Positions 535 to 38,453 of a stretch of 44,367 bases of DNA are shown here, piece after piece. This DNA comes from Mizuhopecten yessoensis (taxonomy: Eukaryota). Positions within the stretch are counted from its first letter, which is position 1, and each line of letters starts with the position of its first letter. Position numbers and translations under genes: made by a program. Where the stretch lies: NCBI RefSeq assembly GCF_002113885.1, contig NW_018407210.1, forward strand, positions 160,926 through 205,292, read 5' to 3'. The notes under the pieces were generated by a model, which was not told where the DNA came from, did not search any database, and saw only the letters and a program-made list of their open reading frames with translations.

Positions 535-1039
535 CTGAAATATGATTTTGTTACTATGATAGGAATTCACAAACAGAAACATCACGTAAATGCATTTATT
601 TACAACTGTTTTTTTTGTTTATTTGCTAATTCACAGTAATGTTGCTTATACTTAACAGGACTTGTAACTTTTGTATATAAAATGTATAGTCACATAAAAG
701 GTGTTTATACATTCTAATCCTAAAAATAAACTGTTTACTTGCCTATTTTTATGTTTAACATTTTTTGTTTATAATAAAAGAACACTTCTTCCTGCAAAAA
801 GCTTATTGCCTAAAAGATTTGCCTAACTCTCAATCCTAATTTTAACCAGATGTAATGGGAACACAAATATAGTTTTATTTGTAGAAAAACATTTACCAAA
901 TTATTAATAAAATGTCTTTTTTTCTCTTGTTTATGTTAAAATAAGAATAAAAGAGAACAAGAGGCCCAAAAGGCTGTCAATTGTTGCAGCTCTTCTAGTG
1001 AAAAATAGAAAACATCTGAGCCAATTAGATGCCAGGACA

Positions 1040-1915
1040 GTCAACTTGGAATTTTGGATAGGTGCAAAATGTAAGAAAACTAGGTGATAACCTTAAAGGG
1101 AACACTTGTACTCTGTATGGAAGTCAATCGCTGCAGCCAGTTTTGAAAAAAGTAAAAAAGGAAGCCATCTTGGAATTTCAGATTGGCACGGAAAGTGATA
1201 TCACTTGTTTGGGATGTTTGTTCAAGTTTCATGTCAATCCCTGCAGCCATTGCAGAGAAGAAGTCAAAAATGTCTGAGCCAACCACAAGCCATAACAGAC
1301 ATCTATTTTCAGATTGGCGCAAAAGGTATTAACACTTGGTTAGGACCACATAAGGAACATTTGTAACAAGTTTCCAGGCAATTGCTGCCGCCATTCTTGA
1401 AGTTGTATATGTCTCTTCAAATCAGAGGGCAAGGTGTACCAACTAGAAGCCAGGGAAGCTGTCATGAATTTTTTATATTGGCACAAAAACTAACAACACT
1501 TGGTTGAACCCACACACACACATTTGTACTAAGTTTGGAGTCAATCATCGAAGCTGTTTTGAAAGAAAATAAAACTTTCTCAGCCAATCAGAGACCAAGG
1601 CCAATCTTAAATTCTCAGCCAATCAGAGACCAAGGCCAATCTTAAATTCTCAGCCAATCAGAGACCAAGGCCAATCTTAAATTTTGAATCAAAAAGAAAA
1701 GTATGAATGCTTGGTGGTGACATTCCAGGAAATGTTTCTATTGAGTTTGGAGTCAATCACTGAAATTATTCTTGAGAAGTTAAAAATATCTAGAGGCCAT
1801 GCTGGCCATCTTTGATTTGTGGATTGGCACAAAAAGTAACAACACTTGATCACCCTAAACAGGAACAATTCTGTATCAAGTTTGGAGTCAGTCAATAATG
1901 TTGCTCTCAAGAAGT
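1040..1915. repeat. Degenerate higher-order tandem repeat, ~185-190 bp unit (motifs ttggcacaaaaagtaacaacacttg / ggaacatttgta.aagtttggagtcaatca / gaagtcaaaaatgt), ~4.5 copies
   Basis: The same blocks recur at ~1190, 1300-1400, 1480-1560, 1700-1770 and 1810-1900. Confidence 0.7.
1578..1684. repeat. 35-bp tandem repeat (ttctcagccaatcagagaccaaggccaatcttaaa) x3, nested in the 185-bp repeat
   Basis: Three near-identical consecutive copies. Confidence 0.9.
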
Positions 1916-3215
1916 CAAAATGTTTCTGCTGACCATATGTCAGAAACGCTAAGTCAAAATGTTTCTTCTGACCATATGTCAGAAACGCTAAGTCAAAATG
2001 TTTCTTCTGACCATATGTCAGAAACGCTAAGTCAAAATGTTTCTGGTGACCATGTCAGGTAAGCTAAGTCAAAATGTTTTTGCTGACCTTATGTCAGGTA
2101 CGCTAAGTCAAAACGTTTCTGCTGACCATATGTGAGAAACGCTAAGTCAAAATGTTTCTGGTGACCATGTCAGGTAAGCTAAGTCAAAATGTTTTTGCTG
2201 ACCATATGTCAGGTAAGCTAGGTCAAAATATTTCTGCTGACCATATGTCAGAAACGCTAAGTCAAAATGTTTCTGGTGACCATGTCAGGTAAGCTAAGTC
2301 AAAATGTTTTTGCTGACCTTATGTCAGGTACGCTAAGTTAAAATGTTTCTGCTGACCATATGTAAGAAACGCTAAGTCAAAATGTTTCTGGTGACCATGT
2401 CAGGTAAGCTAGGTCAAAATATTTCTGCTGACCATATGTCAGGTACGCGAAGTCAAAATGTTTCTGCTGAACATATGTCAGAAACGCTAAGTCAAAATGT
2501 TTCTGCCGACCATGTCAGGTACGCTAAGTCGAAATGTTTCTGCTGACCATAGGTCAGGTAAGCTAAGTCAAAATGTTTTTGCTGACCTTATGTCAGGTAC
2601 GCTAAGTTAAAATGTTTCTGCTGACCAGATGTCAGGGAAGCTAGGTCAAAATGTTTCTGGTGACCATGTCAGGTAAGCTAAGTCAAAATGTTTCTTCTGA
2701 CCATATGTCAGAAACGCTAAGTCAAAATGTTTCTTCTGACCATATGTCAGAAACGCTAAGTCAAAATGTTTCTTCTGACCATATGTCAGAAACGCTAAGT
2801 CAAAATGTTTCTGGTGACCATGTCAGGTAAGCTAGGTCAAAATGTTTCTGGTGACCATGTCAGGTAAGCTAAGTCAAAATGTTTTTGCTGACCATATGTC
2901 AGGTAAGCTAGGTCAAAATATTTCTGCTGACCATATGTCAGAAACGCTAAGTCAAAATGTTTCTGGTGACCATGTCAGGTAAGCTAAGTCAAAATGTTTT
3001 TGCTGACCATATGTCAGGTACGCGAAGTCAAAATGTTTCTGCTGAACATATGTCAGAAACGCTAAGTCAAAATGTTTCTGGTGACCATGTCAGGTAAGCT
3101 AAGTCAAAATGTTTTTGCTGACCATATGTCAGGTACACTAAGTCAAAATGTTTCTGGTGACCATGTCAGGTAAGCTAGGTCAAAATGTTTCTGCTGACCA
3201 TATGTCAGGTAAGCT
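1905..3215. repeat. Minisatellite, 36-39 bp unit (gctaagtcaaaatgtttcttctgaccatatgtcagaaac and variant gtcaggtaagctaagtcaaaatgtttctggtgaccat), ~35 copies
   Basis: Period 39 between successive gctaag motifs; two alternating subvariants. Confidence 0.95.
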
Positions 3216-3470
3216 TTCTTGGATTACAGATTGACAAGAAATGTAACAACACTTGGTCAGGACTTCATAAGCAACATTTGTACCAAGTTTGATGTCCATC
3301 TGTAGAGCCACTGATCTACAGTAGACATAAAAATGTCTCAGATAATCAGAGGCTGAGGCAACCAGGTTTTTTTCAGATCAAAACATAATACAACACTTGG
3401 GACAAGAAAAAGATCATTTGTTTTAAATTTGGAGTCAATCATTTTGGTGGTTCTTAGAAATAAAAAGTAA
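3215..3470. repeat. Continuation of the ~185-bp degenerate repeat on the far side of the minisatellite
   Basis: The blocks acaacacttgg..catttgtaccaagtttgatgtc and acaacacttggg..tttggagtcaatca recur. Confidence 0.6.
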
Positions 3471-3694
3471 CCAACTGTCGACGATCAATGCACTCTATAA
3501 GACGGATAGCATAGTCCAATCAGGAAATTACAATGACATTTCAAAGAATGGAAATCATTATATGATATATCTAAAAACAATACAACTTTTCTGCATTCAA
3601 CATTTTTCCTGATTTTTAAAGTAAAAAAAAGAATTACATGAAAATACTTTTGAGAAAATAGGCTATAAAATCAATATTTTCATATCTATAAAAT

Positions 3695-7934: not shown

Positions 7935-8855
7935 GAAACATTAAAGTTGTCACAACCTCAGAAGTGTTACATTACCCGGTAAAACTTTTATAACCCCTGC
8001 TTACAACCTCAGAAGTGTTACATTGTCCGGTAAAACTTTTATTACCCGTGCTTACAACCTCAGAAGTGTTGCATTACCCGGAAAAACTTTTATAACCCGC
8101 GCTTACACCCTCAGAAGTGTTACATCATCCGGTAAAACTTTTATAACCCGTGCGTACAACCTCAGAAGTGTTGCATTACCCGGAAAAACTTTTATAACCC
8201 GTGCGTACAACCTCAGAAGTGTTGCATTACCCGGAAAAACTTTTATAACCCGCGCTTACACCCTCAGAAGTGTTACATTGTCCGGTAAAACTTTTATAAC
8301 CCGTGCTTACAACCTCAGAAGTGTTACATTACCGGGTAAAACTTGTATAACCCGTGCTTACAACTTCAGAAGTGTTACATTATCCGGTAAAACTTTTATA
8401 ACCCGTGCTTACAGCCTCAGAAGTGTTACATTACCCGGTAAAACTTTTATATCCCGTGCTTACAACCTCAGAAGTGTTACATTACCGGGTAAAACTTATA
8501 TAACCCGTGCTTACAACTTCAGAAGTGTTACATTACCGGGTAAAACTTATATAACCCGTGCTTACAACTTCAGAAGTGTTACATTATCTGGTAAAACTTT
8601 TATAACCCGTGCTTACAACTTCAGAAGTGTTACATTATCCGGTAAAACTTTTATAAGCCGTGCTTACAACCTCAGAAGTGTTACATTACCCGGTAAAACT
8701 TTTATATCCCGTGCTTACAACCTCAGAAGTGTTACATTATCCGGTAAAACTTTTATAACCTGTGCTTACAACTTCAGAAGTGTTACATTATCTGGTAAAA
8801 CTTTTATTACCCGTGCTTACAACCACAGAACTATTAAGCTTGTTCAAAACTGGTC
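7935..8855. repeat. 51-bp satellite (ccggtaaaacttttataacccgtgcttacaacctcagaagtgttacattac), ~18 copies
   Basis: A period of 51 (= 17 codons) explains the 292-aa ORF at 8023..8901 as an in-frame repeat artefact. Confidence 0.9.
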
Positions 8856-8864
8856 TCGCAACCA

Positions 8865-8990
8865 TAAAAGTTTCTTTAGAACAAATACTCCTAGAACATG
8901 AATTTACACTTCAAAGCATGTTTAGAACAAGTACTCCTAGAACATGAATATACATTTCAAAGCATGTTTAGAACCAGAACTCATAGAAAC
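8865..8990. repeat. ~46-bp repeat x2.7 (gaacaa.tactcctagaacatgaat.tacatttcaaagcatgttta)
   Basis: Direct repetition. Confidence 0.8.
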
Positions 8991-18381: not shown

Positions 18382-18562
18382 TGTGGTGTTTGTTGACGTT
18401 CTGTAAGCGTGCGAATGACTGTGAGTGAAGCATGTGAGTGACCTCGAATTGTTCATGCATGTGTTTTGTTCCAAGATAAAAAGTACCCAAGCTGAGATAG
18501 CTGTCCAGTGTTCTATATTTGTGAAGCGTATGTGTGCCGACTGTACTGGTACGAATACAACA
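18382..18562 (+). repeat. 5' LTR (181 bp, tgtggtg...tacaaca)
   Basis: Identical to 25797..25977. The upstream and downstream flanks differ between the two copies. Confidence 0.9.
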
Positions 18563-18563
18563 A

Positions 18564-18581
18564 TGGCGTCACGAGCATTCC
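18564..18581 (+). promoter_or_regulatory. Primer-binding site TGGCGTCACGAGCATTCC, 1 nt after the 5' LTR
   Basis: TGG.. complementary to a tRNA 3' end ..GGAAUGCUCGUGACGCCA. Which tRNA is not determined; it is possibly Arg-like. Confidence 0.6.
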
Positions 18582-19319
18582 CGAGTCTGTTCGCGGAGGT
18601 CATGGATACGCTAGAATCCGAGGAGAATTTCTAGTGGGATTAATACAAGAGACGTAGAATCCCGGGTAGAGGGTGCGCGCCATCTTTGATTGTCTTTTGT
18701 GTGATACACGTGTTTTGTGTTTCACGTTGTCCCAATGTTTATGTTTTGTGTTTAGAGTTGTATCCTGGGTAGAGGGAGCAATTTATTCACAAATTCATTC
18801 GATAGTTGACCCGTGTAGAAGGCCAACTACTGTCTGATACCCTTGCGTGTTTTTAAATAATAAAACAAAAACCAAAAACGAAACAAACGGAAACGGAACG
18901 GTTATCTTAGGACAATAAAAAAATAAAATATTTAGACAACATTTTATTCGTGGTCACGTTGGTTAGGTGCTCTGGTGGCGCTGTACCAATGGTAACTGAT
19001 GTTTGATTAATTTAGTTTCAAGTGTATTCAGTGAGGTAGGTGTTCTGTTGACGCCAGGCTGCTCTGAATATCTATATATATATTTATTAATTTTTTTTTG
19101 CTCGCTGTGGTAGGTGTTCTGTTTGACGCTAACCCTCGAGTATTATTTATATTAAAACCACAGCTAGGGTGTCGGTTGTTTTTCTCTTACTGTTCTAATA
19201 TGCAGTGTGGTGGGTGGTAATTACCGCTACCCCTGTTTAATAGAAATAAATTTTGTAAAAGGATTTGGGTATATTTTTTTTTTTTTTTTCTCTTGTTGTT
19301 TCTGTGTTAACAGATCTAG

Positions 19320-20114
19320 ATGAACAAGCGGTATGCAGGGGTACTGATCGCAGATTCAAGAGCAAATAATTTTCAAAGATTTGGTCATCCAGAGGATTTC
19401 AACATCAAATTTATAATTCAGAGAGGCGCACAAATTCAGGACCTGGTGGCATTATCAATTCCAATCGTTCGGACATTTGAACCATCAAAAACTTTAATAA
19501 TAAAAGTTGCTGCTGGCATTAATGATTTGTTAAAATTGGAACGGGAGCCAGATGGGAAAATTCTAGTACCGTCAGACAGGTCACCGGACAATATTATTGA
19601 AGAACTTTCAGAATTTAGAACACGTGTACAGGTAGTTAGACCATCAAGCCGAGTTAGTTTCATCACCATCCCTCCTGCTTCGTTAAAAGACTTTCAACTT
19701 AATAAATCCTCCAAACCAATTAACCAAAATCTGGTAACAAAATTACAAGAACAACACAATAAAACTGTGTTGGAGGTAAATTCTAGAATTCACCATTTAA
19801 ATAACCAGACAGTGCCAACGGGTTGGACAGTTAAGTGGGCAGATACCATTGTTCACAAACACAAGAAAAGGAGAGGCCGTGCACGGAAAGTGATTACCGC
19901 TTACCGGTATTCCTTTGAACAGTATTACGATGGCTTACATGCCAAATCTGATGTAAAGAAAGAGTGGTACAAACAGGTGGTTTCTGGAATTCGAGGGGAT
20001 ATTACCAAATTGGAAAAACCAGGAAGTGAGATTCGAATTGTCACCACAGAATCTTCAGAAGAGGACACTCCGGTAGACACTGACGATAAAAGTTGGAAGA
20101 GACTTAAACGGTAA
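19320..20114 (+). CDS. ORF0 (264 aa) in the retrotransposon leader: SGNH/GDSL-hydrolase-like (esterase) protein
   Basis: Block I VLIADSRAN (Ser13), block II RGAQ (Gly), block III AAGINDL (GxND), block V YDGLHAKSD (DGxH). Basic KHKKRRGRARK stretch. Confidence 0.7.
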   Translation: MNKRYAGVLIADSRANNFQRFGHPEDFNIKFIIQRGAQIQDLVALSIPIVRTFEPSKTLIIKVAAGINDLLKLEREPDGKILVPSDRSPDNIIEELSEFRTRVQVVRPSSRVSFITIPPASLKDFQLNKSSKPINQNLVTKLQEQHNKTVLEVNSRIHHLNNQTVPTGWTVKWADTIVHKHKKRRGRARKVITAYRYSFEQYYDGLHAKSDVKKEWYKQVVSGIRGDITKLEKPGSEIRIVTTESSEEDTPVDTDDKSWKRLKR

Positions 20115-20129
20115 TTGTAATACGGCAGC

Positions 20130-20230
20130 GGGTTGGTGATCTGTTGTCGCCTTATCCCCTGCACCGTAGAACTCTTAAACGATAAGTTGAGGTTGTGGGT
20201 TGGTGATCTGTTGTCGCCTTATCCCCTGCC
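20130..20230 (+). repeat. Two copies of a 33-bp direct repeat (gggttggtgatctgttgtcgccttatcccctgc) at 20130-20162 and 20198-20230, immediately upstream of the gag ATG
   Basis: Exact duplication separated by 35 bp. Confidence 0.9.
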
Positions 20231-20233
20231 ACA

Positions 20234-21637
20234 ATGACTCGTATAAATTACTGTGAGAGACAAGACCTACTACTATTGCCGGGTATTGGAGAGCGTCTGG
20301 CGGACAAAATTCTACAAGTCCGTGAAGTAATGGGGGACATTACTAAAGAGGTTCTGTTGGCCATTCCATACCTGAGGCCCACAGAGACCATGTTAAACCA
20401 AATAGACTTTACACCGCGATATGAACGGTTTACTGACATGGGTGAGAACTTGACGGGTGAGCATCACACCTACAAAATGGACCCACCACCAAAGGTTCAA
20501 CATCCTTCACCACCACGACTACAAGTTCAAAATCCAGGACCGTATTTTGACAATTATGGGTATCCTGGCAGCCGCCAGAGAGAACATCGACAGCAGTACC
20601 AGTACACTAATTACCGAGACCCATACGAACAGGAATACCACGGTCAGCCCCGTCAACCACAGTTCAACTTTCCACCTCCAAGGTACAATCCGGGGAATCC
20701 GCCGCCAAGACGTGGACGGGTGGTAGCTCCCAAGACGTTACGCTATGATGGAAACTCCGATTGGAAAGCTTTTTGCACAAAGTTTACTAGATTCACTGAG
20801 GCGGAGAATCTTACTGCTCGTGAATGTCGGGATAACCTTTGCTGGATACTGGAGGGCAAAGCTAGTGAGTTTTTCACTATGCTCTTGGATCGTGATTCAA
20901 CGATGGAATTTTTCGATATCATGTCAAAAATGGAACGCCGTTTTGGATTCAAGGAGCTGGCCGAGACTACCCAAGCACGCCTTCGTAACGCCCGACAGTA
21001 CCCTGACGAGAAGCTAGCAGATTGGGCTGATCGGGTGTTATCTTTAGCTACCAGAGCCTATCAGGATCTGCCCGATGAGTTTATGTATAAACAAGCGATC
21101 TCCACAATTTGCCAGGGAGCAGCAGATAAAGAAGCAGGCCAATATGTTTCTAACCTAAGATTGGGATCTATTGAGGAAGTGGTGGACAAGATGAGACTTT
21201 TTCAACATACAAGAAAGTCTATCTATGGTCGCGACCGTCCTAGACCTTCGCCTGTCGAAGAACTAATCATACAAGAGGAAGAAGGTACTAGTGTCAGCAG
21301 GACATTCCAGCGTAGAGTCCCAAATTCTCAGTCCTCATTCCAGCCATCTTCAGCAACAAACCAAAGGCTGTCAGCCCTAGAAGACAAGGTATCGGACATG
21401 CAAAAATCCCTTAAACAAATTTTGGAGGCTGTTCGTGTCCCAGAGGAAAGGATCAAAAGGAATGTGGTTTGTTATGGTTGTGGCCAGACAGGCCATTTTA
21501 AGTCGAACTGTCCTAATGCTGAAGATAATAAATCTGTGAAACTCCTGGATGCGGCTGAAAAGACTGAAGGTGAAGAAGTAGTCCCTGGATCTGAAGAAGT
21601 TGAGGACTCGTTAAACACCGACAGGTCGGCCAACTAG
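20234..21637 (+). CDS. gag: gag (467 aa): N-terminal HhH motif (LLLPGIGERLADKIL), Gln/Pro/Tyr-rich linker, capsid-like region, CCHC zinc knuckle (CYGCGQTGHFKSNC)
   Basis: CX2CX4HX4C motif at 21469..21510. Sits upstream of pol within the LTR element. Confidence 0.85.
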   Translation: MTRINYCERQDLLLLPGIGERLADKILQVREVMGDITKEVLLAIPYLRPTETMLNQIDFTPRYERFTDMGENLTGEHHTYKMDPPPKVQHPSPPRLQVQNPGPYFDNYGYPGSRQREHRQQYQYTNYRDPYEQEYHGQPRQPQFNFPPPRYNPGNPPPRRGRVVAPKTLRYDGNSDWKAFCTKFTRFTEAENLTARECRDNLCWILEGKASEFFTMLLDRDSTMEFFDIMSKMERRFGFKELAETTQARLRNARQYPDEKLADWADRVLSLATRAYQDLPDEFMYKQAISTICQGAADKEAGQYVSNLRLGSIEEVVDKMRLFQHTRKSIYGRDRPRPSPVEELIIQEEEGTSVSRTFQRRVPNSQSSFQPSSATNQRLSALEDKVSDMQKSLKQILEAVRVPEERIKRNVVCYGCGQTGHFKSNCPNAEDNKSVKLLDAAEKTEGEEVVPGSEEVEDSLNTDRSAN

Positions 21638-24600
21638 ACCTAAGCCCGACCTTAGATGTTAAAAATGGTCTTCATCCTACACGGTCAACAATTACACCAG
21701 ATGACCTTATCAGTGAGGTAATGACTGATAACACCACCGAATCAACCCGTGTTGAACTTGATAATATTACCCGATTACGGTCAACATCCATGTTTCAAGT
21801 GCCTGTTATCGTGGGAGGTTTTCATACAAGAGCAGTGGTGGATACCGGTGCTGAAGTATCAATCATATCGGATGAGGTATACAAAAACCTTGTTGAGCCA
21901 CCCTCGATATTGAAACATGTGACACTTAATGCAGCAGGCAGAGATCAACCAATTGAGAGCTATATTGTTGGACCCATCGAACTAGATATAGGATCTAAGA
22001 GTTACAAGGTTAGCATTTATGTTGGACCAATTGAAGATGATATCTTGCTGGGTCTGGACTTTCTGAAGCCCAATAATGCTCAACTTGACATTTCAGGGGA
22101 TACTCTTACCCTGGGTATTGGTGGAGAGAAAATTTCAGTGAACACAGGAAAAGAATTTTTACCTGCTTCCGAAGGCAAGGTATATGTACAGAAACGGACT
22201 GTAGTACCACCGAACAGTGTAGCAAGAGTGTGTTGTCGAATTTCCGGAAAGGTAGGCAGTTCTAGTCTAATTGTGGAGCCTACAGTAGAAAATGGACTAC
22301 TAATTCCGAGATCATTGTATGACACAGCCTCGCAGATCAGGTTGTACTGTGTGAATGTCACGGACAGAAATATAATTCTGAAAAGGAAAACGGAAATTGC
22401 GATAGTCAATGAGGCAAGAGAAATTATTGCGAATGTTGAAAGTCATGCGGATCCCATATTTGTGGAGACATTACGCTGTGGCGAGGAAACACCGGACATT
22501 GCGCCTTCGCATGTACAGAGTCTCATTGATGGCGCGAAAGAACAGTTGTCGGTTGAGGAGTTAAGTCAATTTGCTCAACTTATTAAGGATAATTCCGATG
22601 TTTTTGCGAAAAATGACTTTGACCTGGGACATTTTAGTGCTATCAAACACAATATTGATACAGGTACGGCACGGCCGATAAAGCAACGTTTTCGCAGAAC
22701 GCCAGCATGTTTTGCCAACGAAGAGGATTTGCATCTAAAGAAGATGCTAGATTCTGGAGTTATCGAATCCTCTACATCCGAGTGGGCGTCAGCACCAGTG
22801 CTGATCCGTAAACGTGACGGCGGAGTGCGCTGGTGCATAGATTATCGGGGACTGAACTCGGTAACTACTAAAGACGTGTTTCCATTACCGTTAATAGAAG
22901 AATGCCTCGACGCATTGACCGATAACGTGTGGTTTTCGAAACTAGATGCCAACTCGGCTTATTGGCAAGTCCTTGTCAATGAATCGGACAGACATAAGAC
23001 TGCCTTCAGTACAAAACACGGATTGTTTCAGTTTGTCAAAATGGGATTCGGACTTTGTAACGCCCCAGCAACTTATGCCAGAGTAATGAACCTGGTTCTT
23101 CGTGGATTAACATGGAACATTGTTCTTGCCTTCCTGGACGATGTGTTGGTTCTTGGGAAGACCTTCGATGAGCATCTCCAAAATCTAGCAGAAGTCTTTG
23201 AGCGCATCAGGGCGTATCAACTGAAACTCAAACCCGCTAAGTGCGAATTCTTTAAAAAGAAGGTTGACTTCTTAGGGCGAACAGTTAGTGAAAGTGGCAT
23301 TGAAACCAGTGGCAAACACATCGAAAAGATGAAGGAGTGGCCAACACCAACATCATCTAAGGATGTTGAGCAATTCTTGGGGTTTGCCAACTACCATCGC
23401 TCATTTATTCCCGAATATGCCAAAATTGCAGCTCCTCTGTACCAATTGACAGGAAAGAATGACTTTCGGTGGGATGAGGAACAGGAAAAAGCATTTTCCA
23501 GCTTAAAATCTTCCCTGAGTTCTCCACCTGTTTTGGGAATACCGAATAACAGCGATATGTTTGTGCTCGACACAGACGCATCTGACTTTGCTATTGGTGG
23601 TGAGTTGTGCCAAATTCAAGAAGGCAAGGAAAGAACAATAGCTTATGCTAGTTATTCCCTGACATCAGAACAGCGTCGCTATTGTACAACAAGAAAAGAA
23701 CTTTTGGCAGTAGTTCGCTTTACCAGACAGTTTCGCCATTATCTGCTTGGTCGCAAGTTTGTGGTGAGAACTGATCACAACAGTTTGGTTTGGTTGCTCA
23801 ACTTCAAAAATCCCCAAGGACAACTGGCGAGATGGCTTGAAGAGTTAAGCCAGTATGATCTAACTATTGTACACCGAAAAGGAAAAGACCATCAAAATGC
23901 TGACAGTCTCTCCCGGAGTCTACCAAAAGACCAGTGCGGAAACTTGAAACATGGGCAAGATCCTACCACGTTACCATGCGGAGGATGTGCCTATTGTACT
24001 CGGGCTCATGAACATTGGCATCAGTTTATCTCTGATGTGGACGAGGCGGTCTCTCTAAGTAACATACCCTGCGTACAAAAAGTAACCCAGTCTGACAATA
24101 CTTTCGCCGTGGAAGGAAGTCTATATAGCGAGAATTTGACCATAGAAGTGTCTGCTTTTGGAATAAATATCCTCACTAGATCTGAAAGGAGTGATATTGA
24201 AGACATGAACGTCAACGCCTTGGATATTCAATTCTCGGGTTACTCGGCAAAGGAAATCCGGACTGCTCAGGAGCAAGATCCAGAGTTATCTATACTGCTA
24301 GAGTGGGTAAAGAATAAGAAAGAGGTGGACGAAGGAGAACTGTTTGGATCCAGTAGAGCCATAAAGTATTACTGGATTAACCGTGAGTTATACTTCCTGG
24401 ATGAGTCTGGTATATTGTGGAGGAAGGATCTAGAAGACACTAGCAAAACTCAATCCTTGGTTATACCTCCCAGTATGAGAGAAGACGCTATTTCTTTGTG
24501 CCATGACATCCCGGCTAGCGCTCATCAGGGAATCAACCGAACAGAATCCATGGTTCGCCAGAGGTTCCATTGGTATGGCTTGCCTCGCGACGTTCAAAAG

Positions 24601-25746
24601 TTCGTGAAATCCTGTGTCATCTGCAACACCAAGAAAAAAGCCAGTCGAAAGGCTCGATGCCCGTTGACTCTTTTCCAATCAGGGGAACCCATGGAAAGAG
24701 TTCATCTTGACTTCTTGGGCCCACTACCCATAACAGCAACAGGAAATGAACACATATTAGTTATGGTAGACCAGTTTACCAAATGGGTTGAATGTGTTCC
24801 CTTACCTTCGCAGACCGCCGCGACAACCGCAAAAGCAGCTGTAAACGAATTCTTCGCGAGATTTGGATATCCGTTCCAAATTCATACAGACCAAGGTAGA
24901 AACTTTGAAAGTCGTCTGTTTAAAGCTTTGTGTGAAGTTACGCAAATTCATAAAACTCGTACAACGGCTTATAGACCTTCTGCCAATGGACAAGTGGAGA
25001 GGTATAATCGCACCATCATGAACGCAGTTCGATGCTTCATAAACTCTCAAAGTGAATGGGACATCTATTTACCACAGCTAGCTGGCGCGCTAAGGTGTTC
25101 CGTAAACCGCCAAACTGGACATACCGCCAACAAGTTAATGCTGGGCCGGGAGACCAATCAGCCTGCAGATCTCTTGTATGCCGCTCCATCGAACAAGAAG
25201 GCGAAGGACTCTCGCGACTCTGAAAGTTATGTGGACAATTTGGTAGATGCAATTCAGCGTGCCCATGAAACCGCCAGAAAAACCCTTGCCACAACGCAGA
25301 GGAGAATGAAACGTGATTACGATGTTCGCGTTTACACTACCGAGTTCATTGAAGGGGATGTGGTCTACGTCTTCGACAATGCAACGCCTAAGGGACAAAA
25401 TCCCAAGTTAAAGGCCGTTTGGAAAGGTCCTGGACTCATAGTCAAAAAGTACACGCCGTACGTCTATGGAGTACAGATGGGGAAGACGCGACAAGTCATT
25501 AATCACGATCGATTAAAAATGTGTAATGACCGTAAGCGACCCCAATGGATAATCGATCTCCAGGAGCACCGAGCGGAACCGGTAGAGGAAACCCACTGTG
25601 TCTGCCATCAAACGGATGATGGGACCATCATGATCCAGTGTGACTTTTGTTTTGTGTGGTTCCATGGACGTTGTGTGGGCTTAAATGTAGAGGAAGCCGA
25701 ACAGCTGGAACTTTATTGCTGTACTACGTGTGAACAATCTGTATAA
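21604..25746 (+). CDS. pol: pol (frame open from 21604; first ATG at 21721): protease (VDTGAEVS), RT (FSKLDANSAYWQV; FLDD), RNase H (VLDTDASDFAIGG), integrase (HHCC + DDE + GPY/F), C-terminal PHD-type zinc finger
   Basis: Domain order PR-RT-RH-IN means Ty3/gypsy. It is in the -1 frame relative to gag with a 34-nt overlap. Confidence 0.9.
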   Translation, partial: GLVKHRQVGQLDLSPTLDVKNGLHPTRSTITPDDLISEVMTDNTTESTRVELDNITRLRSTSMFQVPVIVGGFHTRAVVDTGAEVSIISDEVYKNLVEPPSILKHVTLNAAGRDQPIESYIVGPIELDIGSKSYKVSIYVGPIEDDILLGLDFLKPNNAQLDISGDTLTLGIGGEKISVNTGKEFLPASEGKVYVQKRTVVPPNSVARVCCRISGKVGSSSLIVEPTVENGLLIPRSLYDTASQIRLYCVNVTDRNIILKRKTEIAIVNEAREIIANVESHADPIFVETLRCGEETPDIAPSHVQSLIDGAKEQLSVEELSQFAQLIKDNSDVFAKNDFDLGHFSAIKHNIDTGTARPIKQRFRRTPACFANEEDLHLKKMLDSGVIESSTSEWASAPVLIRKRDGGVRWCIDYRGLNSVTTKDVFPLPLIEECLDALTDNVWFSKLDANSAYWQVLVNESDRHKTAFSTKHGLFQFVKMGFGLCNAPATYARVMNLVLRGLTWNIVLAFLDDVLVLGKTFDEHLQNLAEVFERIRAYQLKLKPAKCEFFKKKVDFLGRTVSESGIETSGKHIEKMKEWPTPTSSKDVEQFLGFANYHRSFIPEYAKIAAPLYQLTGKNDFRWDEEQEKAFSSLKSSLSSPPVLGIPNNSDMFVLDTDASDFAIGGELCQIQEGKERTIAYASYSLTSEQRRYCTTRKELLAVVRFTRQFRHYLLGRKFVVRTDHNSLVWLLNFKNPQGQLARWLEELSQYDLTIVHRKGKDHQNADSLSRSLPKDQCGNLKHGQDPTTLPCGGCAYCTRAHEHWHQFISDVDEAVSLSNIPCVQKVTQSDNTFAVEGSLYSENLTIEVSAFGINILTRSERSDIEDMNVNALDIQFSGYSAKEIRTAQEQDPELSILLEWVKNKKEVDEGELFGSSRAIKYYWINRELYFLDESGILWRKDLEDTSKTQSLVIPPSMREDAISLCHDIPASAHQGINRTESMVRQRFHWYGLPRDVQKFVKSCVICNTKKKASRKARCPLTLFQSGEPMERVHLDFLGPLPITATGNEHILVMVDQFTKWVECVPLPSQTAATTAKAAVNEFFARFGYPFQIHTDQGRNFESRLFKALCEVTQIHKTRTTAYRPSANGQVERYNRTIMNAVRCFINSQSEWDIYLPQLAGALRCSVNRQTGHTANKLMLGRETNQPADLLYAAPSNKKAKDSRDSESYVDNLVDAIQRAHETARKTLATTQRRMKRDYDVRVYTTEFIEGDVVYVFDNATPKGQNPKLKAVWKGPGLIVKKYTPYVYGVQMGKTRQVINHDRLKMCNDRKRPQWIIDLQEHRAEPVEETHCVCHQTDDGTIMIQCDFCFVWFHGRCVGLNVEEAEQLELYCCTTCEQSV

Positions 25747-25782
25747 GTGTGAACTGACTCCACAGTATACAGGGACTTCTAT

Positions 25783-25796
25783 AAAAGAGGGAGGAA
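25783..25796 (+). promoter_or_regulatory. Polypurine tract AAAAGAGGGAGGAA, immediately 5' of the 3' LTR
   Basis: Purine run abutting the LTR start TGTGG. Confidence 0.75.
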
Positions 25797-25977
25797 TGTG
25801 GTGTTTGTTGACGTTCTGTAAGCGTGCGAATGACTGTGAGTGAAGCATGTGAGTGACCTCGAATTGTTCATGCATGTGTTTTGTTCCAAGATAAAAAGTA
25901 CCCAAGCTGAGATAGCTGTCCAGTGTTCTATATTTGTGAAGCGTATGTGTGCCGACTGTACTGGTACGAATACAACA
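25797..25977 (+). repeat. 3' LTR (181 bp)
   Basis: Identical to the 5' LTR. Confidence 0.9.
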
Positions 25978-26799
25978 ATAGGTAGCTCGCCGGAGGTAGC
26001 ACAGGAGTTTGACAGTATATCAATATAATAGTCTAGATGAATGGGGTATTTTTTCATCTGGACTTTTGTATTATATTGATATAATTTCGAACATAACAGA
26101 AAAGAATTACTCACAATTGCTGCAATGCCCTTCAAAGTCAATATATATTATACTTAATCATCAGTATTGATCGATGAAAAGCTGATGAAGATGAAGTCAG
26201 TCATTTCAGACCAGCTGTTATAATCACTGAAATCAGTCATGTAGTTTTTGAGGAATTTTGTTTCAGTCCTCGTTAATTTTAATTTGGTACTTTTATACCA
26301 TTGGACCCCTGTCCCACAGCTGTCTGTGTTGTTCCCTATATATATACCTATACTATACAATTGCCTTGCTAGCTCCACTTAATTTCGGCTTGGGTTGTTT
26401 TGCCAGGACACTTCCGCTGACCAGGTATAATAGCTCATTCGGTCAGAATGAAAGTATACGATGTAAGTCCATGGTTTAAATCCAAGTTTAGCCTGAATGT
26501 TTAAATGTACTCGGTCAGAACACTCCTGTTGATTACAAGTAAATTTTGTTTGTTTCATCATGATTATTTCTCAAAAAAGTCCTGCAAGATAGGATTTTCT
26601 TTTCAGAAATGATATATCAAAGCTTCACATGATGCCTGAAAAGACAGTTTTTTTAAGTACTTAAGTACAGTTTTGGCAGAGAACTCTTTGGAAGTACCAA
26701 AACATACCGTGTCCTGTGTAATAACCAACAAACCAAGCCAGCAAGCTAAGCTGACCCAAATCAATTAACCTTGAATAACTACAAATTCATTCCTGTTTG

Positions 26800-27240: not shown

Positions 27241-27794
27241 CAAACTGATGGTTCTTAAGAAGACATGTAAATGAAAAGCTGAAGGACAACATATCATGGT
27301 GGCAGCCACACCACAAAATCAACTTGCATGAGACCCGTTGGGCTGAAAATGTTTCTCTCTTCCCGGTGTGTTTAAATCAATGTTGATTGTTCATTTCACA
27401 CATGATACATGTACATTTTTGTTTTACCATACAGCAATTTCAACAACAGAACAAGTAACTGAGTTCAAGATTTATTCAACAATTTCATGAATTTATAATA
27501 CATAAGTTACTACATACACAAATGTATGTATGATTACAAAATATATAGTAGTGGCCTACACAGGTGAAATGAATTATTTAATATTGCAAAAGTTATTTCT
27601 CTTGAAACAGTCAAATTAGATGTTTCAGAAACCAATTTGCTCTCATTACTTTGTACAGCTGTAACAGAAATTCAAAGGTGAAGTTTGATAGAATTCATAA
27701 ATAACTGAGGAAGAAATTTTCTAATCATTAAAATGAAAAAAAGTGTGAATTTGTTTAATGCACCAATCTTCATGTTGTATACATTTACACAAGT

Positions 27795-28705
27795 CTTTGG
27801 AGCAGTATACCAGTAACTAGTTACCACTAGGACAGATTGTGTCTCCCTCTGTCACCCTTCACACACATCCATGGAGCAGTATACCAGTAACTAATTACCA
27901 CTAGGACAGATTGTGTCACACTCTGTCACACTTCACACACATCCATAGAGCAGTATACCAGTAACTAATTACCACTAGGACAGATTGTGTCACACTCTGT
28001 CACACTTCACACACATCCATGGTGCAGTATACCAGTAACTAGTTACCACTAGGACAGAGTGTTTTACACTCTGTCACACTTCACACACATCCATGGAGCA
28101 GTATGCCAGTAACTAGTTACCACTAGGACAGATTGTGTCACCCTCTGTCACACTTCACACACATCCATGGATCAGTATACAAGTAACTAGTTACCACTAG
28201 GACAGATTGTGTCACCCTCTGTCACACTTCACACACATCCATGGATCAGTATACCAGTAACTAGTTACCACTAGGACAGATCGTGTCACACTCTGCCACA
28301 CGTCACACACATCCATGGAGCAGTATACCAGTAACTAATTACCACTAGGACAGATTGTGTCACACTCTGTCACACTTCACACACATCCATGGTGCAGTAT
28401 ACCAGTAACTAGTTACCACTAGGACAGAGTGAGTCACACTCTGTCACACTTCACACACATCCATGGTGCAGTATACCAGTAACTAGTTACCACTAGGACA
28501 GATCGTGTCACACTCTGCCACACGTCACACACATCCATGGAGCAGTATACCAGTAACTAATTACCACTAGGACAGATTGTGTCACACTCTGTCACACTTC
28601 ACACACATCCATGGTGCAGTATACCAGTAACTAGTTACCACTAGGACAGATTGTGTCACACTCTGTCACACTTCACACACATCCGTGGAGCAGTTTACAA
28701 ACACA
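27795..28705. repeat. 74-bp satellite (ccatggagcagtataccagtaactagttaccactaggacagattgtgtcacactctgtcacacttcacacacat), ~12 copies
   Basis: Period 74 (27871 to 27945 to 28019). Confidence 0.95.
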
Positions 28706-29712: not shown

Positions 29713-29751
29713 TCAATTCCGTAACTTTGCAAGTCGCTGCGTAAGCTCGTC
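29713..29751 (-). CDS. CHMP1: CHMP1-like last coding exon: DELTQRLAKLRN*
   Basis: ttttcag acceptor and TGA stop. Matches human CHMP1B DELSQRLARLRDQV*. Confidence 0.7.
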   Translation of the reverse strand, partial: DELTQRLAKLRN

Positions 29752-30027: not shown

Positions 30028-30109
30028 CTGTTCATTACTAGCATTTGATGAGGCTACTCCAGAAGGTAAGGAGGACTGCGCTGATGGAAGGTCCATGTTT
30101 AATTCCAAA
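30028..30109 (-). CDS. CHMP1: CHMP1-like exon: (G)LELNMDLPSAQSSLPSGVASSNASNEQ
   Basis: tgttacag acceptor and CAG|GTAGGT donor. Matches CHMP1B LDLNMELPQGQTGSVGTSVASAEQ. Confidence 0.75.
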
Positions 30110-30539: not shown

Positions 30540-30691
30540 CCAGCCTCATCAGCGACCTCCTGCATCAGTCCCTCCACCTGTGTCTGGGGGGTGTTGAGGG
30601 TGGACGATGCATTCATTGTGTCTTCCATCACCTGTGACTGCACATCCAGATTCTCAAACTGTTGTTCAAACCGGTCCATCAACTGTGAGAT
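30540..30691 (-). CDS. CHMP1: CHMP1-like exon: ISQLMDRFEQQFENLDVQSQVMEDTMNASSTLNTPQTQVEGLMQEVADEA(G)
   Basis: Matches CHMP1B ISALMDKFEHQFETLDVQTQQMEDTMSSTTTLTTPQNQVDMLLQEMADEAG. ttgaacag acceptor and GG|GTATGT donor. Confidence 0.85.
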
Positions 30692-32202: not shown

Positions 32203-32271
32203 TTTCTCCAGATTCATACTCTTCATTGCTGATTCCATAGACTTGACCACACCTGCCATGGAACCTGTCAC
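32203..32271 (-). CDS. CHMP1: CHMP1-like exon: VTGSMAGVVKSMESAMKSMNLEK
   Basis: Matches CHMP1B VTKSMAGVVKSMDATLKTMNLEK. ttgacag acceptor and AAA|GTAGGT donor. Confidence 0.8.
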
Positions 32272-32830
32272 CTGTCAATCAAAAACATCTACATCAGAGA
32301 ATGTTTGCATTATTTATAGAATCAAATGCAAGAAACTGACCCTCAGCTATTCAAACCTAGCAATTCTTTATCACAGAATTATTCTATAATTATGTAAGTG
32401 TTCATCATATTAAGAACTATTGAGTAGCATCAATTCTAGAGAATCTCATCTAAACTGGATCATAAGAAATCCAGTACTAAATATATGTGTATTTTCTAAG
32501 TATTGAACTGCACTCTGTTCAGAGTTATGGTCCTTAAATTCTTCACAGGATTGCTGACAAATCAAGTAATGTTGGTGTGCATGCTACAATTTTTTTCCTG
32601 CATTTAATCATAGCTGACTTGGTTTAGGTTTATTCAGTGGCAATGCTGAGCAAATCTAAACATACATAAAGTTTCTTAGTTTGTAACAAATGCTAGATTC
32701 CACCCGTGTAGGTATTAGTATCACCATCAGAAAAAGCCATTTAATTTTGGATGGAAATCCAAAAAGAGACATAAATCCCTTACAACCTTTTTTCAATATA
32801 TTTCACATAGTAGCTATAGCGTGCATCTAC

Positions 32831-32977
32831 CTGTTTCATGGTGACAGCTGTTTGTACCCGGGCAGCCACAGCATCGATCCTTGCACTCATGCGTCTGTAG
32901 TTGAGGGCCTGATTCTTCTGGCGGATGGAGTTCTCTGCATGTATTCGGGCTCCTTCTAGGTTACCTTTCTGGATAGC
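32831..32977 (-). CDS. CHMP1: CHMP1-like exon: [49 protein letters not shown]
   Basis: Matches CHMP1B [49 protein letters not shown]. tgtcacag acceptor and CAG|GTAGAT donor. Confidence 0.85.
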
Positions 32978-33524
32978 CTGTGACAAGATCATCGTTTTGT
33001 CAAAAAAGGTAAGAACCTTGGTCTATCTGAACCCTTACAATTACTTTAAGCTTATAAGATGTGATACTATCTACCGGGTAAAAAGGGAACTGGCATGGAC
33101 CCAGCATGTACATGTAGTCTCGGCTGTTTCATCCCCTTCCTCAGGAGTGAACAATTTTATATGAAAAAGTACTAGCCTGCAGGTTGATTTTGCCCAAACA
33201 TAAAATCTACTAGTCCTGAGAATTTTGCATGTAAGATGTACACCTCTCTTTCTGGGAATCTACGATCACATTGGATAAAAGCCAATCAAACTAATGAATG
33301 TAGTGAGAAGCTCTCTTACAATAAGATGTTAGTTTTAATAGACAAGTTTGTAACATTGCAAATTGGTGCTAGGTTTGGTACTTTTTGTCACGACTGTCCT
33401 TACAAGTACATGTAACATGAATATAATTGGTGAGTTAGAGTTCAATGCTACATGTGTAATATTGCCAAAATATATTATGATTTTTTATATACAATAAAAT
33501 GTATTCACCTAAAGAGAAACTCAC

Positions 33525-33622
33525 CTTTTTTAATTTTCTTTTTTCTGCTCTTTCTTCCTTATCGCATTTAACAGCGAAACGCTGTAGTGACCTAGCACTG
33601 TATTTCAAATTAAAGAGGTGCC
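33525..33622 (-). CDS. CHMP1: CHMP1-like alternative exon 2a (98 nt): (G)HLFNLKYSARSLQRFAVKCDKEERAEKRKLKK
   Basis: ctacag acceptor and AAG|GTGAGT donor. Matches CHMP1B KHLFNLKFAAKELSRSAKKCDKEEKAEKAKIKK. Confidence 0.75.
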
Positions 33623-34202
33623 CTGTAGTGTGTTAAGGTATGTTTGTTATCACCAAGTGTTAGAATACCTGACCATGTAGAAACTTACTATATATGTTTA
33701 CAGGTTTGGTTTGCATTATATCTGTTTAATAAAGCAGCTAAAAATTGGTCACTGGTGAAATAGTCATTTTATTGTCCCGCTCTTGCCCTTTGACCTCTGG
33801 AAATACATCTATATTGCATTTCAGGGACAACTTAAGACTAAAACTGTCATGTCCATTATATAACTGTTTACTATATATATTGTACTGCATGTGCTATAAT
33901 ACCTGGTATATGATAATGTTTTTATTACAATGCAGATCATTCATAGAAAGCATACAAATTTAAGAGAGGTCTGTAATGGAGTAAGTGTATGATTCGGTAC
34001 TTCAATAGAAATATAAGTTTAATACCCTGTTGGGTATATGTACAGGTACATGAGATTCTTTTACACCAGCACAATGATTTCATATGTGAATACTGATACC
34101 TACAGTTTTGTAATACTGTATGTACTTACCTGTAACATACCGGTACTGTTTTCAAAAAAGATAACTTTGCGCTATAATTAACTTACTGTGCAAAACTTTT
34201 AC

Positions 34203-34300
34203 CTTTTTTAATTTGGTTTTTTCTTCTTTTTCTGACTTTTCACTTCGCTTTGCATTGCGCTCCAAGTCCTTTGCAGCGAACTTGAGATTAAATAGATGCT
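34203..34300 (-). CDS. CHMP1: CHMP1-like alternative exon 2b (98 nt): (E)HLFNLKFAAKDLERNAKRSEKSEKEEKTKLKK
   Basis: catag acceptor and AAG|GTAAAA donor. Same length and phase as exon 2a; it is a paralogous copy of the same protein segment. Confidence 0.7.
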
Positions 34301-36782
34301 CTATGGACTGTTAAGGTATATCAGTCAAGACATGCAATACATATAAATCACATATAAATATCAACATTGATAAATACTATAATATGTTCACATGCAAAGA
34401 AATTTACGTAATATATATACATGTACTACGTATACATTGATTTCAAATATATGGAATTTTCTATATTACAAAGTTACAGTGCAACATCAGGATCAGATCA
34501 AGGTAACTAGTGCAGAAATAACTTTAAAATCTTAATGTGATCATAATACAAAGTTTTTGAAAATAATATATCAGGAGCTATATACATGTATAATAATCAT
34601 TCATGTACAATGAATTTGGCATTATCTTTTTATGATACGGATTGACCTGAATAACTTTTTTTTTGCGATTGGGATAAATTGTGTATTACATGTACATCCA
34701 ACCCTAAATTTTGAAATACTGCCTAAAAACATACACTACCAATGCACATATCAATCTTCCCTCCTTTTTTCCAAACCTGGAGAAATCAGTGGGATGGTCA
34801 TGTAAATGAGTAAAATAAACTAAATTCAAATGTTGACCTCTATAAAAAATGTGTGATAGCAACAGTATATAATGTTCATATGTAATATACACATATCATT
34901 CACCTGATGAGATCCGATACAGTATCAGGTATATCATCTCATCGAAGGTTTCTGTGTGTGATATTGTTTTGTGCCGCTGTTTTATCCAGCTGTATCTCAT
35001 AACGATGTGATGCATCAGATCATGCTCATTTCCTTTAAAAAACTAAACAATACAATTTTGAAAAACTGTGGTTATTTTGTCTCACCCTTAAAAATAATGG
35101 CAAAGAACAAGTGTATTTAACAAAACTCAGTGTTGTATAATACGATGGAGCTTACGTAGTAATGACAATGATTATCAAAACTTCACTTAAAATAAAGCAG
35201 ATCTGCAGACCTAGATCAACTACAGTATCCTCGGGTTACCAGTTTCCGCGCACTTAAGAAGCATCCGCAATTCGTACTCATATCAGCAGAAAACTGTTGA
35301 AATTATGGAAGACTGTCATAAACATGTATACAATCTACTAAAGGAAACAAAAAACTTGCAACATAAAACAGTATTTTAAAAAAACCTGAACAAACAAATT
35401 TCTCCCATCAGAAGTAGCCGTCATATGTTTCCGTGTCTATTTTGATTTAGAGTTCAAAGAAAGATAACTCGAATACACTAAAAAGAAACTCTCTACAGTG
35501 ACCTGCAAGAACAAAAGCTTCGCTTGGAATAAAAAAAAACATCTTTGATGATCAAATTAATTATCAAAACACATTTTTTTAAATTTCTCATTTTTAATTG
35601 ATTTTTCAAGATGTCGAATTGAACGAATTCATGTAATTTTATAAATTTATTTATTATATTTATTTAGTTATGATATAGAATCTGTTATTATCATTTTCTG
35701 CAGTCTTATATTGGTTTTGGTTGATGGCACGTTGTTTCTCATTTTGTTCTGTTTAAAATTGGTGAAAATTGGAAGTTCATTGCATTACAAGGTTTACGTT
35801 TCATTGAAAACACTGTTTATCGATATAAGAATGTCTCCTTGGCTCTTCGGAAGTGGAAAAAATCGGTGAGGAGATGTGGGCTCATTTGCATACAACATTC
35901 CCGTACATTTGTCAGATTACAAAAAGGACTGGTTCATGAATGAAATATATCACCGTTTTTTTTAAGGTATGGGTTCATTTTGAGGGGCGGGATAATAATA
36001 GTTTGAAGATTGTTTACCTATTATATAGTAACATACAATCCGACTGAGCTGTATTTGGAAAAAGTTCTGATTCGGTGTTGGTCATATCAACTCGGTCCTG
36101 ACCTTTAGGAACTCTATCCCTATCAGAAAAATGTATTTGAAATGTATATAATTGATTATATGTAGTGGTATATAACTTATACTAATAAAAATCTGACACA
36201 ACATAAAAAATGGAATGGAAATAGGATTTAAGTCAAATGTATATTTGAATTGAGAAGTAATAGAGTATATCAGTGAAGTCTCACCATTACCCTATCAAAA
36301 AATCACATTTTCGTTCTGATCTAAAATTTGATGTCAAATGTTGTTTGACCAGAAATTTGAATCTATGTCAGTTCTTGGTTGCCTTAATATTTTCTGGTAA
36401 TGCATTCCAGTCCTTTATTGCATTATAAGAGAAAGATGTGGACTCTACCCCACTTATATTATTTATATAAAAGTTATATTGGCTTATACTTAGATGGCCA
36501 AACGTCTAAAACATCCTTGTGTTGTGTCCAGCAGGTCACGTAGTAACGAGATATAGCTTGATAAAACAGCTGCGCGGAAATACATATCGAGCGGAAACTG
36601 ATGACTAGACGATACATATATATAATACAGGTGCGCTCTTTTGACAACTGTACTAAAAATAAAACCTTCGTCTAAAATAAACACTGAAGAATAGAATATT
36701 CATTCGCATAGTACTAAAGTAAACAGATAAGTAATGTAGTCACTGAATCAAAAGGTTTTGTTTGCAAGACCCTGTGGGGTAC

Positions 36783-37652: not shown

Positions 37653-38065
37653 ACGACCTGAATTCGACCCTGTGACTGATCCAGGAAATCGTGATTTCCA
37701 ATGTTTACATTTTCATGATCTCCAAACCATCTTTGATAATCAACATCTTACCATTTCCTTATTACCAGAAATATTTCACAAATAGTTTAAAGGATACTGT
37801 CCATCGACATCTTTCTTTTCTGTTTTCTGTGACCAACGTTCCTGTGTGATTGGATTTGAGATCTGACTGCAAATTCTAAAATCGTGATTGAGAAATGACC
37901 ACTTCTCTTGTGATGTTGAGTGGGAAATGAAGTCATACATTCCTACGTCATCAATATTTGTGTACTTATCGGACTACCTTTGGATTTATCCTAAATTAAG
38001 GTCATGGGAGGTAAAAAGACGAGAGCTTCCGATTTAAATACACGAGCACATGGGATTTGGTAAAC

Positions 38066-38222
38066 ATGACGGAGGATAACAATTTACCGCAAAAGAGGAA
38101 AAAGAAAAAGTCTGCGGAAGATAAACATGACACCGAGTCACCAAAAAAGAAAAACAAGACAGAAGAATTCACAGAGATTACATTTAAATACCTTTTGAGA
38201 GATCCAGCAACAACTTTTTCAG
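38066..38222 (+). CDS. Plus-strand gene exon 1 (ATG): MTEDNNLPQKRKKKKSAEDKHDTESPKKKNKTEEFTEITFKYLLRDPATTFS (Lys-rich, NLS-like)
   Basis: ATG at 38066 and CAG|GTTCGA donor. Phase 1, which matches the next exon. Confidence 0.45.
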
Positions 38223-38453
38223 GTTCGATGATTTTTTTGCACGACACTGGCTGACATTATCAGATGAAAATGTGATCTATTCAATTTGTGCAATATGATG
38301 ATATACTCTCATTTAAACCTTACCCATTAAGAAGCCAACGTATTGTTATTGTCAATCTCTCGCAACTGCGATTTTTGTAGTTTGAAATGCGTTGTCTTCC
38401 ACCAACTCAAGTGCTAGTGCACTTGTGCAAAACAGATCACAGGGGCATTGAAA

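Follow-up and report, generated by a model that had tools for sequence, protein, structure and literature searches.

Mutually exclusive exons that derive from tandem duplication are a well-known class, with the clusters of muscle myosin heavy chain genes, the scallop gene included, among the examples. Two-exon clusters in which the reading frame enforces the choice and Rbfox proteins control it are found in vertebrate FGFR2 (IIIb/IIIc), in egl-15 and in other genes. The hexamer UGCAUG is a Fox-1/Rbfox element, and an exon that carries it in the upstream flank is repressed (PMC2777236). In Caenorhabditis elegans egl-15, ASD-1 and FOX-1 act on UGCAUG to repress the upstream exon 5B, presumably at the branch point, which results in the use of exon 5A in muscle (PMC2777236). 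Here we describe a pair of tandem exons, 2b and 2a, in the CHMP1 gene of the scallop Mizuhopecten yessoensis. The pair lies on the minus strand of a 44,367-nucleotide stretch of genomic DNA (NCBI RefSeq assembly GCF_002113885.1, contig NW_018407210.1, positions 160,926 to 205,292 of the forward strand), referred to below as the window; positions given without a locus handle are those of the window.

As in other clusters that arose by tandem duplication, the scallop exons are adjacent and homologous, are equal in length and phase, have splice sites of their own, exchange one structural element of the protein, and comprise one conserved and one divergent copy; the scallop case is a small, lineage-specific two-exon cluster in an ESCRT-III gene. 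It resembles egl-15 5B/5A in having two tandem homologous exons, one per productive mRNA, and a UGCAUG upstream of the upstream exon. In contrast, egl-15 and FGFR2 are unrelated to CHMP1 as genes and as proteins, and the action of the factor is known in those systems whereas the scallop pair is known from sequence alone. The searchable literature yielded no account of mutually exclusive exons for CHMP1 or for any other gene of ESCRT-III. We put the probability of the explanation as a whole, namely a tandem exon duplication in the scallop lineage with one exon per mRNA and exon 2a used as the alternative, at roughly 0.7.

Reading frame and conservation of the exon pair

Judged by its database matches, the gene is a member of the CHMP1 subfamily of ESCRT-III. 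In a phmmer search against the PDB, the scallop protein matched human CHMP1B end to end (E = 7e-81, residues 2-198, 197 residues) and CHMP1A more weakly (E = 2.7e-55), which bears out the description of the locus as a CHMP1 homologue in an earlier note on this DNA. Among the matches listed, the closest database proteins bear the name charged multivesicular body protein 1b and carry PF03357 (Snf7 domain). The C-terminal CHMP1b fragment 3eab_G is matched by residues 147-199 (E = 5e-11), the MIT-interacting motif (MIM) helix is present, and the C-terminal ...EQDELTQRLAKLRN of the scallop protein aligns with human ...EQDELSQRLARLR. PDB entries for human CHMP1B are 6TZ4, 6E8G and 3JC1.

The locus was read on the minus strand (35600..32500) and exons were located by tblastn with a CHMP1B sequence; by sequence reading and tblastn, a CHMP1B-like gene is complete in the window, from exon 1 through exon 7. 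The earlier note had described two paralogous 98-nt exons 580 bp apart, each entering in phase 1, leaving in phase 0 and bounded by its own AG and GT, and coordinates, sequence and tblastn all agree with that description. In both 2b and 2a the sole open reading frame is the third (offset 2). The two exons share 18 of 32 amino acids and 61 of 96 nucleotides, and each type finds the other in reciprocal tblastn with E ~1e-9.

Conceptual splicing shows what the frame permits. Inclusion of both exons after exon 1 gives MSMDK...KLKKGTSLI and a stop after 42 codons, 5 codons into 2a, as the earlier note had foreseen in holding that double inclusion breaks the frame; the stop lies far upstream of the last exon junction. 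Skipping of both exons gives MSMDSYPER and a stop after 9 codons. In Argopecten, where 2a is longer, the two exons sum to 208 nt (98 + 110) and the frames are still incompatible when combined. The exon lengths of 98 nt (110 nt for Argopecten 2a) thus leave exactly one exon for each productive mRNA, and from the frame and the selection described below we infer that mutual exclusivity is enforced by the reading frame. Messenger RNAs with both exons or with neither would be expected to go to nonsense-mediated decay. Several sequence features by which mutually exclusive exons are recognized are present: the two exons are similar neighbours on the same strand, their lengths differ by a multiple of three (0, or 12 in Argopecten), their phases are the same, and both are kept coding in four genera.

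Two details of the earlier note had to be replaced. It had read the residues of the split codon as E and G; because exon 1 ends in A, the junction residue is K with 2b (AAG) or R with 2a (AGG). It had also listed candidates for the first coding exon at ~35240-35265, ~34787-34811 and ~34881-34912, all of which are wrong: the exon lies ~2.5 kb upstream of the nearest candidate, at 37810..37798. The three candidates were rejected as lying outside scallop-conserved sequence, the interval from 37673 to 34366 being without conservation in other scallops. The placement of exon 1 is based on an exact pattern match and on the sequence, and agrees with the MSMD N-terminus of annotated scallop proteins; ATGTCGATGGACA followed by gtatcc is found identically in Pecten, Argopecten and Ylistrum, and exon 1 falls within a scallop-conserved block at 38226..37673.

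To assess the conservation of 2a, orthologous loci were compared from Pecten maximus (L001), Argopecten irradians (L002) and Ylistrum balloti (L003), all Pectinidae, two of them assigned by look-up. The exon order E1-2b-2a-E3 is the same in all three and the frame of 2a is open in each. A sensitive blastn against the three loci aligned exons 2b, 2a and 3-7 and the block that spans the promoter and exon 1; beyond these it gave only a small number of repeat-like matches and, in Pecten alone, a weak block between 2b and 2a (74% over 89 nt). Nucleotide identity of 2a in blastn was 86-89%, compared with mostly 83-90% for the constitutive exons (78% for Argopecten exon 6). Past ~45 nt upstream and 8 nt downstream of 2a, identity falls to 29-39%, and the intron lengths vary several-fold across the genera (807-3497, 580-2589 and 157-657 nt).

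The changes that have accumulated in 2a follow its codons. Pairwise dN/dS among the four scallops was 0.04-0.16, third codon positions account for 14 of the 21 variable columns (P = 0.002), and an excess of synonymous changes was seen in two independent species pairs (P = 7e-5 and 3e-3). Exon 2b shows zero non-synonymous changes across the four scallops, and dN between 2a and 2b is ~0.35-0.39. In Argopecten, a 12-nt insertion, TGAAACTTAACC, lies directly after the conserved acceptor (L002 7005-7016); it is in frame, contains no stop, turns the junction R into MKLNQ, and partially repeats the upstream CTTAAC branch-site-like motif. An initial impression that the Argopecten acceptor was lost was abandoned, as the alignment shows the acceptor kept and followed by the 12-nt in-frame insertion. 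The codon split between exon 1 and 2a reads AGG, AGG and AGA (all Arg) in three scallops and ATG in Argopecten. By these measures exon 2a is marked with the signature of a translated exon, in the frame that is valid only without 2b, and we consider it likely that 2a is a functional coding exon used in place of 2b. The earlier note had proposed a comparison with the CHMP1 loci of related species, and this comparison found 2a intact, at the same position and under purifying selection in four scallop genera.

These data bear on the possibility that 2a is a silent relic of exon duplication that is never spliced in, its conservation being due to non-coding constraint or chance. Exon 2a is in no gene model of the four annotated scallop genomes and its acceptor has a poor pyrimidine tract, both of which would be expected of a relic. 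However, an unselected 98-nt intronic segment would not hold 86-89% identity in surroundings of 29-39%, nor would its frame be expected to stay open, its AG acceptor to persist and its 8-nt donor to remain invariant across four genera, or its substitutions to be codon-periodic. The relic explanation is therefore very improbable, and the same data argue against the pseudo-exon alternative that the earlier note had allowed for, since all four genera have 2a with its frame, acceptor and donor undamaged and with variation that follows the codons.

In another explanation, 2a is a regulated poison exon, whose inclusion together with 2b leads to the stop (..KLKKGTSLI) and to nonsense-mediated decay and thereby tunes CHMP1 dosage. 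The position of that premature stop, 5 codons into 2a and far upstream of the last exon junction, would suit such a function, a protein with 2a only is in no annotation looked at, and the strong, invariant donor of 2a fits equally well. A poison exon needs only a stop and splice sites, yet all 32 codons of 2a are open in the frame used without 2b, and the third positions at which 14 of the 21 substitutions fall, as well as the dN/dS of 0.04-0.16, are those of that frame. The length of the insertion in Argopecten is divisible by three and no stop arises from it in the same frame, and the positions at which helix 1 contacts the membrane are chemically kept. We therefore regard a poison exon as unlikely to be the whole explanation; poison use and use of 2a for an isoform could coexist.

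Origin of the duplication and splicing signals

CHMP1 loci of four other bivalves were compared as outgroups: Sinanodonta (a freshwater mussel), Solemya (a protobranch), Saccostrea (an oyster) and Mya (a clam). Each has one 98-nt exon 2 of the 2b type in the same phases as in scallops, and no second exon 2 was found anywhere in the CHMP1 gene of these four. Amino acid identity to 2b is 84-94% for exon 2 of the other bivalve copies examined; for the single exon 2 of the four outgroups it is 88-94%, compared with 56-63% to 2a. With just one exon 2, of the 2b type, in each outgroup, the duplication is specific to the scallop lineage; it would have taken place after scallops and oysters separated but before Mizuhopecten, Pecten, Ylistrum and Argopecten last shared an ancestor. 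Exon 2b would have kept an ancestral-like sequence, while 2a would first have diverged fast and later come under purifying selection. The KCDKEE.AEK motif of 2a is similar to the general metazoan consensus and had hinted at an ancient origin of the exon; such an origin was rejected on finding no second exon 2 in the four outgroups, and divergence within the same structural constraints accounts better for the likeness. As a separate observation, the CHMP1 of Pinctada imbricata is an uninterrupted 603-bp open reading frame without introns (L004 1001-1603), probably a retrocopy.

The splice signals of the two exons differ. The donor of 2a is near the U1 consensus and is 100% identical in the four scallops, with identity past its +8 position at ~37%. 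The donor of 2b is without the consensus G at +5, reading GTAAAA, GTAACC or GTAACG in scallops (GTAAAA in Mizuhopecten). The acceptors of both exons are without a T-rich tract, unlike those of exons 3-7, and the 2a acceptor is conserved in all four scallop genera. A presumed branch-site motif, CCTTAAC, ends 10 nt before each exon: upstream of 2b it is invariant in the four scallops, and upstream of 2a it is CCTTAAC in Mizuhopecten, Pecten and Ylistrum and CCTTGAC in Argopecten. Sinanodonta, Mya, Saccostrea and Solemya have this motif or one like it at a comparable position ahead of their single exon 2. The motif of 2a was apparently duplicated along with the exon. A CCTTAAC-like motif ~10 nt before the acceptor is common to the outgroups and to both copies in scallops, and the unit that was duplicated therefore took in the region of the branch site and acceptor.

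Upstream of the 2b branch-site motif is a TGCATG, which lies within the invariant TATTGCATG. In each of the four scallops it lies 34-36 nt before the 2b acceptor, ~20 nt upstream of CCTTAAC, and no GCATG was found within 200 nt on either side of exon 2 in Sinanodonta, Solemya, Saccostrea or Mya. The conserved UGCAUG suggests Rbfox-type switching between 2b and 2a. Exon 2b appears to be the default choice because it is the sole form in the annotations. A factor bound to the UGCAUG just upstream of the 2b branch site would repress 2b, and the donor of exon 1 would then pair with the 2a acceptor, such that, by the logic of egl-15, 2b would be the default and 2a would be chosen where an Rbfox-type factor is present. 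We propose only tentatively, and as something we would bet against at present, a regulated and possibly Rbfox-driven, tissue-specific and mutually exclusive swap of helix alpha-1 that yields two CHMP1 proteins differing in their affinity for membranes or in how they behave towards curvature.

Several observations weigh against the use of 2a as an alternative coding exon or against the switch proposed for it. All four annotated scallop proteins (RefSeq or GenBank models) use 2b only. In two homology searches, of which the best 120 matches each were listed, the KYSAR-type helix of 2a was in no protein among the matches listed, and a profile of E1+2a+E3 from four scallops matched only 2b-type or generic CHMP1 fragments among those listed. 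A 53-aa query specific to 2a drew no candidates, a result that reflects the word index and carries no biological weight. An exact look-up of seven predicted 2a isoforms, including Argopecten variants and an N-terminally extended model, found none in the protein collection. A scan for the spliced exon 2-exon 3 junction that would catch both isoforms gave 0 matches in metagenome contigs and is uninformative. The statistics on 2a are based on just 32 codons in four species. The flank that holds the UGCAUG is conserved overall (79%), and for this reason conservation of the motif alone is no proof of factor binding. No conserved docking/selector RNA pairing was found in a coarse test that computed, for four species, the energy of duplexes formed by the upstream flank of 2b with the flanks of 2a or 2b, and in which no partner or z-score was consistent across the scallops; the comparison of scallop loci revealed no conserved intronic islands other than the splice-site flanks. 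In this the locus differs from the docking/selector systems of arthropod Dscam and 14-3-3, which have complementary intronic elements without a conserved counterpart here.

The absence of 2a proteins is weak evidence, because the scallop proteins of the collection come only from genome annotation and not from read assemblies. It indicates that some form other than 2a predominates in the tissues from which the annotations were made, and it suggests that use of 2a is rare or restricted. On balance, the selection on 2a and its intact splice sites argue that scallops probably make an unannotated second CHMP1 isoform by way of 2a.

The junction between exon 1 and 2a was not observed, which would also fit a different transcript architecture in which, for example, an internal promoter and a first exon of its own bring 2a into an N-terminally different CHMP1. 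The crinoid Anneissia does have CHMP1 isoforms that differ in the first exon; its isoforms X1 and X2 had been considered as an analogous swap of exon 2, an idea that was dropped since they differ in exon 1 only. Against such an architecture, no further block between exon 1 and exon 3 is conserved in all three scallop comparisons, 2a has no in-frame ATG of its own, and its two leading bases hold the phase needed for exon 1 (Arg codons in three species, ATG in Argopecten). We consider such an architecture very improbable.

Gene structure and surroundings

The exons of the gene, the candidate splicing elements and the scallop orthologues of 2a are listed in Table 1. Conceptual splicing of E1, 2b and E3 through E7 gives a 199-aa protein that is identical to the core of the annotated M. 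yessoensis protein XP_021359415/OWF47466, which differs from the product with 2b only just by an N-terminal extension. That model (241 aa) begins at an upstream in-frame ATG at 37936, and positions 37936-37811 (minus strand) add 42 residues. The extension is missing from the Pecten, Argopecten and Ylistrum models, all of which start MSMD, and is probably 5' untranslated region taken as coding.

Table 1. Positions of CHMP1 exons, candidate splicing elements and exon 2a orthologues (window positions, or locus positions where a handle is given)
Feature	Position	Strand	Description
Exon 1, coding part	37798..37810	-	ATG TCG ATG GAC A, then gtatcc; MSMD plus base A of the split codon; ends in phase 1
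Exon 2b	34203..34300	-	98 nt, phase 1 to 0; encodes (K)HLFNLKFAAKDLERNAKRSEKSEKEEKTKLKK; preceding AG, following GT
Exon 2a	33525..33622	-	98 nt, phase 1 to 0; encodes (R)HLFNLKYSARSLQRFAVKCDKEERAEKRKLKK; preceding AG, following GT
Exon 3	32831..32977	-	147 nt, phase 0 to 0; AIQKGN...TMKQ; common acceptor for either exon 2
Exon 4	32203..32271	-	69 nt
Exon 5	30540..30691	-	152 nt
Exon 6	30028..30109	-	82 nt
Exon 7, coding part	29713..29751	-	DELTQRLAKLRN, then stop; C-terminal MIM helix
Donor of 2a	33517..33524	-	GTGAGTTT; near-consensus U1 site
CCTTAAC, presumed branch-site motif of 2b	34310..34316	-	ends 10 nt before the exon
CCTTAAC, presumed branch-site motif of 2a	33632..33638	-	ends 10 nt before the exon
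TGCATG (UGCAUG, Rbfox/Fox-1-type motif)	34331..34336	-	36 nt upstream of the 2b acceptor
2a orthologue, Pecten	L001 6508-6605		intact
2a orthologue, Ylistrum	L003 5165-5262		intact
2a orthologue, Argopecten	L002 7005-7114		intact, 110 nt

On the plus strand, from ~38066 onward, an Npa1/URB1-like gene is head to head with CHMP1, its ATG at 38066 being ~256 bp from the CHMP1 ATG at 37810. The block between the two starts is kept among scallops (38226..37673), and an Npa1/URB1-like neighbour of CHMP1 is also present in the Pecten, Argopecten and Ylistrum loci as well as in those of Sinanodonta, Solemya and Saccostrea. The two genes look like an old bidirectional promoter pair.

On the other side of the gene, ~1.3 kb downstream of the CHMP1 stop codon, is a tandem array (27710-28453) of ~10 copies of a 74-nt unit at 77-94% identity. 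A complete Ty3/gypsy-type long terminal repeat (LTR) retrotransposon occupies 18382-25979 (plus strand), with 183-nt LTRs (18382-18564 and 25797-25979) that are 100% identical, and it looks like a very recent insertion. Its gag (20234-21637) and 1341-aa pol (21721-25746) open reading frames are both intact, and pol contains protease, reverse transcriptase, RNase H and integrase domains and a C-terminal PHD finger. The GC-rich stretch at 20-26 kb of the window is due to this element. A 292-aa open reading frame at 8023-8901 (plus strand) has weak Pfam matches to EndoS_Ig-like (31 bits) and DUF4354, with no single domain stretch passing alone.

Helix alpha-1 and what a second CHMP1 isoform would mean

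Exon 2 encodes residues 5-37 of the scallop protein (human 6-38), which is most of helix alpha-1. In the membrane-bound filament of human CHMP1B and IST1, helix 1 faces the bilayer through F9, F13, K16 and R20, and alpha-5 of the neighbouring protomer docks onto the alpha1-alpha2 hairpin (10.1101/798181). The earlier note had called alpha-1 autoinhibitory, which is not the role it has in CHMP1B, where helix 1 faces the membrane and it is alpha-5 that docks onto the hairpin (10.1101/798181). The helix-1 residues in contact with the membrane in the CHMP1B-IST1 filament correspond to positions within the exon that would be swapped in scallops.

Aligned to human CHMP1B, the four membrane-contact positions are F, F, K and R in 2b and F, Y, R and R in 2a, and on this alignment the aromatic and cationic chemistry of the contacts is retained in 2a. 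Beside the contacts, D16 and E18 of 2b become S and Q/L in 2a, and N20 becomes F (H in Argopecten). The net charge of the segment encoded by exon 2 changes from +6 with 2b to +8 with 2a. The 2a isoform is predicted from these substitutions to have a more cationic, aromatic membrane face, and as an ESCRT-III subunit it may appose membranes differently, probably more strongly.

Either route would give two variants of CHMP1, in vertebrates as the two genes CHMP1A and CHMP1B, which differ over their full length, whereas scallops would vary residues 5-37 only. If helix alpha-1 is swapped by regulated splicing as tentatively proposed above, scallops would achieve with one gene something comparable to the CHMP1A/CHMP1B split of vertebrates, and the pair would serve as a natural helix-swap experiment on how helix 1 tunes ESCRT-III membrane remodelling. 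Evolution would have varied only residues 5-37 of CHMP1, including the positions that touch the bilayer, keeping the contacts and removing neighbouring acidic residues. The locus would also offer a compact two-exon cluster whose origin is phylogenetically bracketed and whose candidate regulatory motif is, among the bivalves compared, confined to the lineage that bears the duplication. A core gene of membrane remodelling would gain an unannotated isoform in four scallops that have been sequenced and are of commercial importance, a case in which annotation pipelines would have overlooked a conserved alternative exon that comparative genomics recovers.

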